A stretch of DNA of 64,000 nt from Escherichia coli (GTDB taxonomy: Bacteria > Pseudomonadota > Gammaproteobacteria > Enterobacterales > Enterobacteriaceae). This document shows positions 30,769 through 40,299 of the stretch, piece by piece; positions within the stretch are counted from its first letter, which is position 1; each line of letters begins with the position of its first letter. The translations under genes and the position numbers were made by a program. Location of the stretch: the NCBI RefSeq assembly GCF_046105845.1, contig NZ_CP151004.1; one strand, written 5' to 3'. The notes below the pieces were generated by a model. The model ran no database searches, had not been told where the DNA came from, and was given only the letters and a program-made list of their open reading frames with translations.

Positions 30769-31857
30769 TCAACCACCTGCTTTCATTACCCATTCAGAGA
30801 TAAATTTATTACCCGGTACTGGCGGAGAGTACAAATAGCCCTGCAAAAAGTGAACGCCTTTGCCGATCATTAAATCCGCCTGCTCCTGGGTTTCTACCCC
30901 TTCCGCCACGATACTCAGACCAGGCTTACGCGCCAGTTCGACAATATTGTCCACAATATGACCGGATATTTCGTCCACGCTCGCCATTTGCACAAATGAC
31001 TTATCGATCTTAATAAAATCGACCGGAAACGCCTGCAGATAACGATAGGTCGCATAACCCGTACCAAAGTCATCCAGCGCAAAGGTAATGTTGTGCTGAT
31101 GAAGGCTGTCAAATATCGCTCTGGCTTCTGGCGTTACCGGAATAGGGTTACGTTCCGTTAGCTCGAGAACCAGTTTGATTTTATCGTTACCTAATTTCTT
31201 AACCAGGTTCAGACACTCTTTTTCAAATCCCGCAGCCAAAAAACAACCCGCCGAGACGTTGATGCCAATATGGAAATTATCCGGCAGCAAATGTTTTACC
31301 GGCATCAGAATATCCGCAGTCTGTTTCATCAACTGGCGAGTCATTATGACGATAAGACCAGATGACTCCGCCAGAGGAATAAACTGATCCGGTGGGATAA
31401 TTCCCGTTTGTGGATGTTCCCAGCGGACAAGCACCTCACAGCCCGTCAGTACCCCAGTCTGCGCGCAGAAAACCGGTTGGATCCACGGTTTAAACTCATG
31501 GTTTTCCAACGCCAGACTGATGGCTTCAGGCGTGACGATATGGTGATAGTGATTATCATTAATATATTTGTGACTATTATTACCCGTGGCGGATATGATC
31601 TCCGGATTGTACTGAAAGAAAATATCCCGCCAGAAAGTAATATCACTCTGAATCCCCAGTTTCTCAAAGAGCTGTTTCTTTTGATGTGAAATGGTCTTTG
31701 CACTGCGATTTCTGTACTGTGATATTTCTGTTACAGACATTCCCTGCATCAGCAGCTTGAGTAGCAGTCGTTCTTTCTCGGATACGCTACCAGGCAATGA
31801 CAAATGAACCGTTGTACCGAACTCTTGCAGAAAAACACGAAAATCACATGAATTCAT
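30769..31857 (-). CDS. pdeL: c-di-GMP phosphodiesterase with LuxR-type HTH and EAL domain
   Basis: ATG at 31857 gives 362 aa MNSCDFRVFLQEF...; N-terminal LuxR-type HTH (LLMQGMSVTEISQYRNRSAKTISHQKKQLFEKLG) and C-terminal EAL domain (ELTE motif). Confidence 0.9.
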   Translation of the reverse strand: MNSCDFRVFLQEFGTTVHLSLPGSVSEKERLLLKLLMQGMSVTEISQYRNRSAKTISHQKKQLFEKLGIQSDITFWRDIFFQYNPEIISATGNNSHKYINDNHYHHIVTPEAISLALENHEFKPWIQPVFCAQTGVLTGCEVLVRWEHPQTGIIPPDQFIPLAESSGLIVIMTRQLMKQTADILMPVKHLLPDNFHIGINVSAGCFLAAGFEKECLNLVKKLGNDKIKLVLELTERNPIPVTPEARAIFDSLHQHNITFALDDFGTGYATYRYLQAFPVDFIKIDKSFVQMASVDEISGHIVDNIVELARKPGLSIVAEGVETQEQADLMIGKGVHFLQGYLYSPPVPGNKFISEWVMKAGG

Positions 31858-32734
31858 GAACACACCTTTTATCTTTTATCGCTGTTCAGTATGAGTGATT
31901 ACCTGTGGATTCCTGAGCACACATAAGGGGTAACCATAAACATCAGCGATGCCATACGCATAACATCCCACATCACTATCAAAAAGATTATCTTTACCTC
32001 TGATGCTCGCTCAAAAACAGTTACGCTAAATACCTTAAAAAGGTAATCACAAGTCAAACTCAGGAGATAATCACGCAAGAATGCAATATTAAAATTCAGA
32101 TACTCATTTTTGGTAATAAAGAAGTAGTTGGACTATTTCAATATTTATAATTTCCCACTACGTATTGACGCCCATTCATGAGTAAAGGCGCATTATATGA
32201 ATTTAACAATCCAGATCAACTGAAAATACCTCAACCTCATAAACACATAGCGTCAACATTCAATGACATAATGAGTAAAGATGTTGGTTATGCATACACG
32301 TCATTACTCTATGCCTATCCCTTAACAACCTGCTTTTTAAGGCTGAATCCATTCAGCAATAGATGGCCAACATTATAACAATGACAATAAAAACAATATT
32401 TAAAACAATCAATAAAATATCAGACACAGACAATTAAACCTTAAACAACAAACAGTTACATTGATTTTAGTTGATTTGCGCTACGCGTTTCCCATGAATA
32501 AAGCGTCATTTCAAATTAGCACCAATATTTACATTAAATAAGACTAAGCTTATTGAACATTCACAACAGTCCAAGCGTAGGTTTTGGGCTTCAATAGTTC
32601 TTTTCTTTTTTATTATCTGTTGCCTGGCAATCATCAATCGATACTAAGGGCTTAACTGTACACAGATATAACGTATCAAGAGGTAAGAGAAACCGCGCCA
32701 TATGCAGACATGGCGCGGTTTTATGCAATAACAA

Positions 32735-34768
32735 TCACGCGTCCGGGAACATCACGCTATGGCCCGGCGCTTCACGATGGAGATGGATAAAGTTAAGGTG
32801 TCGCTCGTACTGGTCGAGAATATCGGTGATCACCTGCTCTTTGCTGTAGTCCATCAGGTCGTTGCCCTGGCTGCCTTCTAACAGGAAAGTTTCCAGCCGG
32901 TAGTAAGTCGATTTACCGCTACGTGCGCGGTAGGTAAAGCCCGGCACCGAATATTGCTGCGGCCAAATCTGATAGACAAAGTTTTGCTCTTCGCCCATAT
33001 GCACCAACAAATCCAGATGCCCCAACTGTTGCCCCTCTTCCGGCGGCAGGCTTTTTAGCTCCACGTACGCGCCGCGCAACCGCAGCTCCTGCGCCACTTC
33101 TTCCATTGCCGGGTAACAGACCGTCTCCATCATCTGTTTAGTGTAACGCGTGCCCGGATAATTCATCAGGCGCGAGAGACGTTTTTTCCAGCTCAGGCGA
33201 TCCTGAAGCCCCAGCGGTCTCGGTGCGGTATCGCGGTTGGCACTTTCACGGCGGTAATCTTCTACCTTCAGAGATTTATACAACCCCGCCATCACGAAGA
33301 AAATCACAAAGCTGAACGGCAGCCCCATGATTACCGTGGTGTTTTGCAGCGCGGATATCCCGTTGGTCATCAGCATGCCGAGCGTCAGCAGGCCAATCGC
33401 CACCGACCAGAAAACGCGCAGCCAGCCGGGGGCGTCGCTGTTGATATCTTTAAGCTGCGAGGTGAAATTCCCCAGCACCAGCGCCCCGGAGTCCGCCGAG
33501 GTCACATAAAACAGCAGGCCAGTAATGGTGGCGACGGAGGCGCTAAAGGTAAACGCCGGATACTGCGCCAGCAGGCTGTAGAAGCCGCGCTCCGGATGGA
33601 CCATCGCTTCCTCGGCAAATGCCGCGCCGCCGTGGATGATTTCATACAGCGCGCTATTGCCGAATACCGAGAGCCATAACAGCGTGAAGGTAAACGGAAT
33701 AATCAACGTGCCCAGCACGAACTGGCGAATGGTACGCCCACGCGAGATACGCGCCAGGAACAGGCCGACAAACGGCGACCATGCCACCCACCATGCCCAG
33801 AAGAAGAGCGTCCAGTTATTCATCCACTCAACCGGACGGTCGAAGGCAAAACTGTTGAGCGTCATTCCCATAAAGCGATTCACATAGTCGCCAACGTTCA
33901 GCACCAGCGCATTAAGCAGGAACGAGGTGTCGCCCATAAACAGCACGAACAGGATCAGCCCCAGCGCCAGCGCAACGTTGAGTTCCGATAACACACGAAT
34001 GCCCTTATCGACACCGGAGGTGACAGAGATCGTTGCGATGATCACCGACAAGGCGATCAGTGCCGCTTTCGCCGCCATCGAATCGGGAATATCAAACAGT
34101 ACGCTCAAGCCATAGTTAAGCTGCACCACACCGATACCGAGCGTAGTGGCAATACCAAAGATGGTGCCGATCACCGCAGCAATATCCACTGAGTGACCTA
34201 TCGGCCCGTTAATCCGTTTACCGAAGATCGGGTACAGCGCCGAGCGGATAGTGAGCGGCAAATTATAACGATAGCTAAAGTATCCGAGCGCCATGCCCAT
34301 CAGCGCATACATCGACCAGCCGGTTAAGCCGTAGTGAAACAGCGTCCAGACCATCGCCTGACGCGCGGCCTCAATCGTCTGTCCCGCGCCTTCCGGCGGC
34401 TGCATATACTGCGTTACCGGTTCGGCTACGGAAAAGAACATCAGGTCGATACCGATCCCGGCAGCAAACAGCATCGCCGCCCAACTCAGCAGACTGAATT
34501 CCGGTTTGGATTGTTCTGGCCCGAGCTTCACCGAACCAAAACGCGAACAAGCGATACAGACCACAAAGACAATATAGAGCGTTGCCGCCAGCAGATAGTA
34601 CCAACCGAAGGTTTTAGAAACCCAGTCCAGCGTGCGGCCAATCCACAGGGCCGAGAAGTCGCGAAACAGGATCGTTGTCAGGGAAAACAACAAAATCAGT
34701 CCGGCGGAAGTGTAAAACACCACCGGATTGATTTTGTCCTTTTCCCTGCTGTGTGAAAGGTCTGTCAT
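32735..34768 (-). CDS. betT: Choline transporter (BCCT family)
   Basis: 677 aa polytopic ORF with ATG start; divergent from betIBA. Confidence 0.95.
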   Translation of the reverse strand: MTDLSHSREKDKINPVVFYTSAGLILLFSLTTILFRDFSALWIGRTLDWVSKTFGWYYLLAATLYIVFVVCIACSRFGSVKLGPEQSKPEFSLLSWAAMLFAAGIGIDLMFFSVAEPVTQYMQPPEGAGQTIEAARQAMVWTLFHYGLTGWSMYALMGMALGYFSYRYNLPLTIRSALYPIFGKRINGPIGHSVDIAAVIGTIFGIATTLGIGVVQLNYGLSVLFDIPDSMAAKAALIALSVIIATISVTSGVDKGIRVLSELNVALALGLILFVLFMGDTSFLLNALVLNVGDYVNRFMGMTLNSFAFDRPVEWMNNWTLFFWAWWVAWSPFVGLFLARISRGRTIRQFVLGTLIIPFTFTLLWLSVFGNSALYEIIHGGAAFAEEAMVHPERGFYSLLAQYPAFTFSASVATITGLLFYVTSADSGALVLGNFTSQLKDINSDAPGWLRVFWSVAIGLLTLGMLMTNGISALQNTTVIMGLPFSFVIFFVMAGLYKSLKVEDYRRESANRDTAPRPLGLQDRLSWKKRLSRLMNYPGTRYTKQMMETVCYPAMEEVAQELRLRGAYVELKSLPPEEGQQLGHLDLLVHMGEEQNFVYQIWPQQYSVPGFTYRARSGKSTYYRLETFLLEGSQGNDLMDYSKEQVITDILDQYERHLNFIHLHREAPGHSVMFPDA

Positions 34769-38654: not shown

Positions 38655-39735
38655 GTCGTGATGTGAACTGACTCAGGAACCTATCAGATTGAGAGTTACC
38701 GTTCTACTATGAGGACCGAATCCTTATATAAAACACTGAGGTAACTCTCATGCTTCATCGTGACAATCTCGCCAGCAAATTCTAAGCTGACTTGCTCAAT
38801 CTGGCTAATGAAGGTGCTATGGATACACAGATAAACCACAGGTGAAATGCCACTCAGCTTAAGAATCACGCAGCTAGTGTTCCTGGCTATGGTTACTTGT
38901 TCACTCTCGCTCACGGTTAGCATATACGAAAACGGTTCTTGTAACGAGGACAAAAATAAGTCAGACCAAAACCACATGGAGCTTTAAACACGGCTCGTAT
39001 AATTTATTAGCAGCGATTTATTTTTACTCTTCTTTAATTAATCATCATGCTTAAATATTTTTTAGCACACGATTATCGCTTCACTAACATTTTAGTTTAC
39101 ATTGATTCCCAATTGACAATAAAAAATTGTTAATAAGTTTTTGCGAAAAATAAAAAGTGTTGAAATACTCTCCAGTAAACGAATGCAAAATAAACAAACT
39201 AAGGTTTACAAAAAACAAAAACTATTCAAAAGAATATTTTTAATTTATTAGCAGAGTCCATTAACAATGGTTTACTCACGAACAGAAAAGTAAAGAACAC
39301 CTTGCAATAATATGTATTTATAAATTCATATCATTGATATTAAACTAATCTTACTTTCTACCCTCCCAACTTCATACACCAAAAAAACAAAGTAAAATCA
39401 ATTATATACACAACAAGGCAATCTCAAAGGAAATAATATTAAATATCTCAAAACTAATAAAAATTACTAAGACATTAGACGTAACACACATCCCACACGC
39501 CCTGTAGCTCATAGCTTTTATATTTATTTTCTCACATCACTGTAGATAAAAACACGCATTAAAAATGACTTGTAGAAAAGCTGCACAATAAATAGTTCAT
39601 ATTTAGTCTGTTGCGTAGAACTACTATTCAAAAAATCTTATTAATGAGATAATGAGATTACATCGATAACGTTCTGATTGCAGGCATACTTATCTGGGTG
39701 TGCCTCTCTTTTTTTACAACTGTACACGGTGGCGT

Positions 39736-40299
39736 ATGACGAGAAAATATCTCACACAGGATGAAGTCTACAGGCTGATGGATGCAGCCCAGAGCATGTC
39801 CTTTCCTGAAAGAAATCGCTGTCTGATTATGATGGCTTTCATTCACGGTTTTAGGGCCAGTGAACTTCTTGATTTACGTTTATCCGATATTGATGCATCT
39901 GGAAAACAACTTAATATTCGGCGTATTAAAAATGGTTTCTCGACAACACATCCTCTTCTTCCTGATGAATATAATTTGATCAAGTTGTGGCTTAAGCAGA
40001 GGAAGTTAATTGAAAACGGAGTTGAAGGAGACTGGCTTTTTCTCTCCCGGAAACGCCGCCCTATCAGCAGACAACATTTTTTTTCTATCATTCGTGAGGC
40101 TGGAAAACGTGCAGGATTAGCTGTAAAAGCACATCCTCATATGTTACGTCATGCCTGTGGTTTTGCTCTGGCTGACAATGGTGTCGATACCCGACTACTT
40201 CAGGATTATCTGGGTCATCGAAATATTCAGCATACTGTCAGATACACAGCCAGTAATGCTGCTCGTTTTAAAGGGGTGTGGAAAAAAAAGCCTCGTTAA
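39736..40299 (+). CDS. Tyrosine site-specific recombinase, FimB/FimE-like
   Basis: ATG at 39736 gives about 187 aa MTRKYLTQDEVYRLMDAAQ...; C-terminal catalytic region HMLRHACGFALADNGVDTRLLQDYLGHRNIQHTVRYT contains the R-H-R-Y tyrosine-recombinase signature, and size and sequence resemble the fim-switch recombinases; gene is visibly AT-rich. Possibly the ipuA homolog (unverified). Confidence 0.85.
   Translation: MTRKYLTQDEVYRLMDAAQSMSFPERNRCLIMMAFIHGFRASELLDLRLSDIDASGKQLNIRRIKNGFSTTHPLLPDEYNLIKLWLKQRKLIENGVEGDWLFLSRKRRPISRQHFFSIIREAGKRAGLAVKAHPHMLRHACGFALADNGVDTRLLQDYLGHRNIQHTVRYTASNAARFKGVWKKKPR

Follow-up and report, generated by a model that had tools for sequence, protein, structure and literature searches.

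Long, AT-rich control regions that are silenced by H-NS, relieved by anti-silencing activators and transcribed from multiple start sites are found at bgl, proU and csgD. The control region of pdeL differs from these in two respects: the regulated gene itself encodes the anti-silencer, a c-di-GMP-sensing enzyme, and a translated small ORF is located between the anti-silencer's two binding sites.

In Escherichia coli K-12, the region upstream of pdeL (yahA) has been dissected by Reinders et al. [quoted passage not shown] Scrambling of the distal, Cra-independent PdeL box (CIB) was reported to have an effect on pdeL expression in K-12, and binding of IHF and Fis in the gap is also mentioned in the literature. 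Shimada et al. (PMC3946193) listed promoter hexamers for the betT>yahA spacer, with a flag for H-NS. Three sense transcription starts were mapped in this spacer by Cappable-seq, at K-12 positions 331267, 331353 and 331503 of U00096.2 (PMC4782308), and the last of these was independently found by Kim 2012, its leader in K-12 being 92 nt long (PMC3415461). The small protein YahV (b4730 of MG1655), which is encoded in the same spacer, was detected in K-12 by chromosomal SPA tagging (VanOrsdel et al. 2018, PMC6001520), and a later bioinformatic paper (PMC9976479) noted that its location, with the bet genes on one side and pdeL on the other, is conserved. The name yahV occurs zero times in the main regulatory study (bioRxiv 10.1101/2021.10.01.462762). 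All functional data for the gap come from the K-12 allele.

We analyzed the equivalent region in a 64-kb stretch of E. coli DNA (hereafter, the window; all positions are those of the window unless K-12 is named). The genes at this locus are as follows:

30769-31857, minus strand: pdeL, an HTH-EAL c-di-GMP phosphodiesterase and transcription factor, controlled by the gap (ORF map, RefSeq, PDB 7pk5)
31858-32734, minus strand: betT-pdeL intergenic region (the gap), 877 bp, 34.9% G+C (ORF map, composition, RefSeq annotation of the identical strain 1190)
32735-34768, minus strand: betT (ORF map, RefSeq annotation of a 100%-identical genome)

A preliminary description of this DNA had reported an AT-rich gap of about 880 bp between the pdeL start and the betT 3′ end, and both its dimensions and its gene calls proved right. 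PdeL matches PDB 7pk5 with E = 4e-247, and the identities of betT and pdeL agree with the RefSeq annotation of E. coli strain 1190, in which the gap is 100% identical. As in the K-12-type layout, the gap extends from the betT 3′ end to the pdeL start, on the same strand as both genes. The program-made ORF list places the pdeL start at GTG 31863 (364 aa), and RefSeq and the solved structure place it at ATG 31857 (362 aa).

The G+C content of the gap, 34.9% versus 49.8% for the whole window, puts it among the lowest-G+C 1.2% of 877-bp stretches in the window. Such composition is consistent with occupancy by H-NS, the binding of which is not itself readable from sequence. All other equally AT-rich 877-bp stretches fall within a single tract at about 38.5-40.2 kb. 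This second non-coding tract, located after betA (38655-39700 and 39700-40299), is still more AT-rich, with a minimum of 30.4% G+C, and lies directly upstream of a 199-aa ORF for a FimB/FimE-like tyrosine recombinase; since it adjoins such an ORF, it could be an invertible-switch region.

At least 80% of the gap is present in 3650 of 5426 complete E. coli genomes. Two disrupted versions of the locus were seen. In E. coli 98193 (L053:1293-1514), pdeL is annotated as a pseudogene with its C-terminus missing, and a yahV variant is intact. In E. coli EF7-18-51 (L055:1501-2320), IS1A directly follows about 47 bp that match window positions 32404-32450 (the yahV 5′ end and the bases just upstream); after IS1A, the sequence runs into a truncated yahL, the segment from pdeL through yahK being deleted.

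We consider it very likely (probability of roughly 0.88) that the gap is the upstream control region of pdeL together with a long leader, as in K-12, and that it also holds yahV. The flanking genes and the order of elements are the same in the window and in K-12, and the two alleles are about 93% identical overall. The published elements can be placed on the window by sequence as follows, in the order in which they are met when reading from betT to pdeL:

32690-32722, minus strand: intrinsic terminator hairpin of betT, with a 14-bp stem and then UUUCUCUU
32534-32557, minus strand: distal Cra-independent PdeL box (CIB), TTCAATAAGCTTAGTCTTATTTAA, matching the reconstructed K-12 CIB at 23 of 24 positions
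32353-32427, minus strand: yahV ortholog, 24 codons, from GTG 32427 to stop TGA 32353-32355, product VSDILLIVLNIVFIVIVIMLAIYC (synteny with and identity to K-12 YahV)
32342-32357, palindromic: Cra box GCTGAATGGATTCAGC (match to the Cra consensus; inside the K-12 CB-CDB EMSA oligo 4695)
[quoted passage not shown]
32219-32192, minus strand: core σ70 promoter P1, TTGATC-16-TATAAT (top scan match, 10/12, and K-12 literature)
32100, minus strand: TSS2, equivalent of K-12 start 331353 (Cappable-seq score 4.8, aligned to the window)
31950, minus strand: TSS3, equivalent of K-12 start 331503 (Cappable-seq and Kim 2012, aligned to the window)

The preliminary description had anticipated regulator and nucleoid-protein sites in a complex regulatory region upstream of pdeL; this agrees with the K-12 work (bioRxiv 10.1101/2021.10.01.462762; PMC3946193), and the box sequences are present in the window. 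The K-12 CIB, TTCAATAAGTTTAGTCTTATTTAA, was reconstructed from the EMSA oligos 4991/4997 and their legend (according to which the probe extends 10 bp upstream and 33 bp downstream of the box) in the supplement of bioRxiv 10.1101/2021.10.01.462762. Its window counterpart, TTCAATAAGCTTAGTCTTATTTAA, is a 24-bp imperfect palindrome that holds the palindrome TAAG-N6-CTTA. A Cra box, GCTGAATGGATTCAG, located upstream of the promoter is a mark of the K-12-type region and was found at 32342-32357. It occurs once in the 64-kb window, where 0.23 chance matches are expected, and 15 of its 16 positions are the same as in K-12; a 17-bp run at this box is invariant in all alleles, including two diverged non-coli Escherichia alleles (L005 and L006) and the region upstream of ehaA in O157.

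Oligo 4695, which contains the Cra box and the adjoining CDB, corresponds to window positions 32329-32358. In the CDB-equivalent stretch, CTTAAAAAGCAGG in the window stands against CTTAATGAGTGGG in K-12: four of the 13 bases differ and the CTTAA core is kept. By analogy with K-12, this stretch may function as a PdeL box in the window allele as well. No site fitting the strict IHF consensus occurs in the gap.

The hexamers of P1 and their spacing are identical to those of K-12, the same hexamers having been given by Shimada et al. (PMC3946193). K-12 start 331267 aligns to window position 32186, which is 6 nt past the -10 hexamer and gives a 329-nt leader. Primer 4283, which forms the end of the RNAP-binding fragment used in bioRxiv 10.1101/2021.10.01.462762, is the reverse complement of CATATAATGCGCCTTTGCTC; it follows that the promoter studied by these authors is TTGATC-16-TATAAT at 32219-32192. 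L005, L006 and the O157 region upstream of ehaA have retained both hexamers. No convincing hexamers were found upstream of TSS2, which may stem either from a weak promoter or from RNA processing. An extended -10-like element, TGTTATGCG, is located upstream of TSS3. The sequence around all three K-12-mapped start sites is conserved in the window, in line with the multiple promoters that had been proposed for this region (PMC4782308; for 331503 also PMC3415461). A consensus promoter scan of the gap retrieved four sites, with 4.3 expected from shuffled sequences, i.e., there was no enrichment; thus, a multitude of promoters is not readable from sequence alone, and this point rests on the K-12 start-site maps.

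The terminator scan missed the hairpin at the betT end of the gap, and direct folding showed it clearly, with a fold energy of -23.9 kcal/mol (z = -4.64 relative to shuffles). Read on the opposite strand, the stem leads into TTTTAT, so that there is a T-run on both strands. The gap shares this terminator with ehaA-carrying genomes.

Outside Escherichia, no full-length pdeL was found. In the non-coli Escherichia alleles L005 and L006, the gap is diverged, being about 60-80% identical to that of the window depending on the part. In both (L005:2998-4000 and L006:2872-4000), the gap and pdeL are located directly after ykgG, in the absence of ykgH and of the bet operon, and the gap starts at a hairpin that resembles the betT terminator. 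An allele of the L006 type had no match among complete E. coli genomes. As a measure of footprints, we used the fraction of window bases that are invariant in both L005 and L006:

31858-32734: whole-gap background, 59% invariant
Cra box: 17 of 17 consecutive bases invariant
CIB: 92% invariant
-35 to -10 span: 89% invariant
31858-31950, minus strand: proximal leader, from TSS3 to the pdeL ATG, 89% invariant, ranking within the top 0.5% of stretches of this length
yahV: 44% invariant
CDB-equivalent stretch: 38% invariant

As can be seen, the Cra box, the CIB, the promoter span and the proximal leader stand out above the 59% background. Despite its high conservation, the 93-nt proximal leader (31858-31950) showed neither an RNA-structure signal nor a conserved coding frame. 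It contains three GGA motifs, CAGGAAT, ACAGGTA and AAAGGTG.

Between the window and K-12 alleles, the distal third of the gap is 90% identical and yahV 88% identical (i.e., they are 10-12% diverged), and the CDB-equivalent stretch is identical at 9 of 13 positions; the 90% of the distal gap compares with 98.5% for the flanking genes.

The preliminary description had also supposed that the region could hide a small protein, and named a weak 66-aa frame. A small protein is indeed encoded here; the 66-aa frame was not the ORF in question. In the program ORF list, yahV appears as a 26-aa ORF with a TTG start (32353-32433), and the 24-codon gene went unremarked in that description. The gene is syntenic with one annotated as "protein YahV" in a K-12-type genome. 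The window and K-12 genes have the same position, strand, length and GTG start, and in both the stop codon lies in the Cra box (TGA 32353-32355 in the window). The products are identical at 17 of 24 residues (71%), with seven replacements, and both are almost wholly hydrophobic peptides that form a single helix. Searches of both YahV alleles against Pfam and NCBIfam returned nothing above threshold, and the exact YahV sequence of the window is absent from a collection of 15 billion proteins.

RefSeq calls depend on the allele: K-12-type alleles are annotated as "protein YahV", intermediate alleles as "hypothetical protein", and window-type alleles, as in the identical genome of strain 1190, carry no call. 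The window-type allele is without a gene call in about 1,700 of 5,426 complete E. coli genomes. In window-type alleles, an in-frame TTG at 32433, two codons upstream of the yahV GTG and 5 nt past an AAGG, replaces the TTA of K-12. The spacing of this TTG to the AAGG Shine-Dalgarno-like motif is better than that of the GTG, and the window allele could therefore encode a 26-aa product.

The yahV frame is open in nine of nine sampled E. coli alleles, which encode six protein variants. Eight nonsynonymous differences and one synonymous difference separate the window gene from that of K-12, pN being at least equal to pS. No sign of purifying selection on yahV was obtained in this comparison, and the chance of the ORF surviving random substitution is 0.24-0.37. 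In the non-coli alleles L005 and L006, the ORF is destroyed, which suggests that it may be young or dispensable. Judged from these alleles, yahV looks like a young, fast-changing ORF restricted to E. coli. That its product is made is documented for the K-12 allele; comparison alone does not establish function.

K-12 Cappable-seq data contain no sense start in the interval from the betT stop to yahV. Further upstream, the closest mapped starts are located inside betT, at K-12 positions 330673 (weak) and 330322 (strong, score 49.6), the latter corresponding to window position about 33133 on the minus strand, about 400 nt before the betT stop. Since yahV has no start site of its own in these data, the most evident candidate for its transcription is read-through past the betT terminator. 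Furthermore, YahV was detected in K-12 from a tag located upstream of all three mapped starts. The alternative that the pdeL mRNA is the only transcript to arise from this region is contradicted both by this tag signal (PMC6001520) and by an antisense transcript obtained in vitro (PMC3141248).

Within the gap, yahV sits wholly between the two PdeL boxes, which are about 190 bp apart. This position could itself be functional: transcription reading through from betT, which would be induced by osmotic stress or choline, and the accompanying translation could displace H-NS, Cra or PdeL and so couple betT to the c-di-GMP switch of pdeL, in which case the YahV peptide could be either a by-product or a membrane-acting partner. 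We regard such coupling as unlikely.

Three other readings of the gap were weighed against that of a pdeL control region holding yahV. Two of them concern additional products. The frame in question is the following:

32178-32378, plus strand: 66-aa frame, overlapping P1, the Cra box and the yahV 3′ end on the opposite strand; rejected as a gene

That it is a real protein-coding gene, placed divergently between betT and pdeL, is the least credible of the readings considered here, even though it is open both in the window, with 66 aa, and in alleles of the K-12 type, with 61 aa, is called "hypothetical protein" in 67 clustered GenBank entries and lies on a strand for which in vitro transcription has been reported (PMC3141248). 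The frame is missing from the RefSeq annotation, searches of Pfam and NCBIfam gave no match to it, and the diverged alleles break it: L005 has lost the start and carries multiple stops, and L006 has a premature stop. The segment of the frame that is conserved best is the one lying opposite the -35/-10 hexamers and the Cra box, and its conservation is thus explained by these DNA sites. The frame had been described as weak from the outset, and on these sequence comparisons we take it to be a chance ORF across the promoter and the Cra box. When all ORFs with 12 or more codons, on either strand, were compared with five alleles, none was convincingly conserved. A 12-codon frame at 31888-31924 and the tail of a 59-aa frame have retained their stops, but all of their changes are nonsynonymous, which makes conservation at the DNA or RNA level the simpler reading; the 59-aa frame gave nothing above threshold with Pfam or NCBIfam. 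AT-rich DNA bound by H-NS yields spurious transcripts in vitro. This bears on the possibility that the gap encodes an independent small RNA, sense or antisense, for which the in vitro run-off arrays of PMC3141248 are one argument: in them, the gap was transcribed antiparallel to pdeL, preferentially with σS. One candidate is a putative plus-strand RNA that would start at about 32416 and run into the two-sided betT terminator, whose hairpin has a T-run on both strands, and a promoter-like ATGACA-17-AACAAT is present on the plus strand at 32381-32409. Against it, an Rfam 15 scan of 31000-33500 gave no match at E <= 1, and the one K-12 3′-end table inspected across the region (PMC7815308) lists none within the gap. 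The 347-nt leader folded no better than shuffled sequences (z = -1.47), the proximal leader, folded as 123 nt, gave z = +0.37 and no compensatory pairs, and in a four-allele consensus fold none of the 32 predicted pairs showed a compensatory change. With neither a family match, nor a structure signal, nor a 3′ end in that table, the hidden small RNA that had been suggested for this region found no support, and we consider it improbable.

The remaining reading is that the gap is mostly a non-functional remnant of the loss of ehaA and that only the proximal promoter matters. In O157:H7, E. albertii and E. whittamii, ehaA is indeed located between betT and pdeL; the distal gap diverges faster than the flanking genes, and no purifying selection is seen on yahV, and these points speak for such a remnant. 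However, blastn and tblastx comparisons of the gap with the ehaA coding sequence revealed no similarity, the only matches being to the terminator and the core promoter, and the CIB and the Cra box form sharp conservation peaks, with function shown in K-12. In addition, the same gap is found beside ykgG in non-coli Escherichia, where there is neither ehaA nor a bet operon, which argues that the gap is old rather than a recent scar. A remnant of ehaA loss is therefore very unlikely, and a control region of pdeL that also holds yahV is the reading that we prefer.

In O157:H7, E. albertii and E. whittamii, the spacer upstream of ehaA (L003:3700-3900 for O157:H7, and likewise L056, L007, L008 and L014) contains the same Cra box and a core promoter, TTGATT-16-TATAAT-GCGC. 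A perfect TAAG-N6-CTTA palindrome, TAAGACGATTCTTA, is present about 25 bp past the Cra box, and homology of this spacer to the window ends exactly at TSS1, the P1 start of pdeL. In ehaA-carrying genomes, pdeL is located 141 bp downstream of ehaA. Given the shared Cra box, palindrome and promoter, ehaA may be under Cra/PdeL control and may be co-transcribed with pdeL.

Reading from betT to pdeL on the minus strand, the strong terminator is followed by about 130 bp of AT-rich DNA, the CIB, yahV, the Cra box and the CDB position, and then, about 120 bp beyond, by the core promoter, the leader of about 329 nt and two weaker internal starts. If the window allele behaves as that of K-12, the pdeL control region would operate as follows. 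H-NS would coat the AT-rich DNA and silence the promoter, as in K-12. Cra would bind its own box independently and recruit PdeL to the adjacent box, and PdeL would bind the distal CIB less tightly. When c-di-GMP is low, tetramers of PdeL would engage both boxes, bending the DNA or probably looping out the approximately 190 bp that include yahV. This engagement would counter H-NS and recruit RNA polymerase, the expected outcome being cooperative, switch-like and bistable expression of pdeL. For the window allele, we infer this scheme by analogy with K-12.

The region is already known, through the regulatory dissection in K-12 and a catalogued small protein. Since both its architecture and its logic have been published for K-12, the present analysis adds little scientifically, and what is new is limited to the unannotated yahV allele and to the placement of yahV between the PdeL boxes. 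The former points to an annotation gap, in that window-type yahV alleles are without a gene call across many E. coli genomes. The overlap of yahV with the Cra box and with the interval between the PdeL boxes matters to anyone mutating either feature. Finally, the allele differences at the PdeL-box region and in the distal gap might alter the c-di-GMP switch between E. coli lineages.
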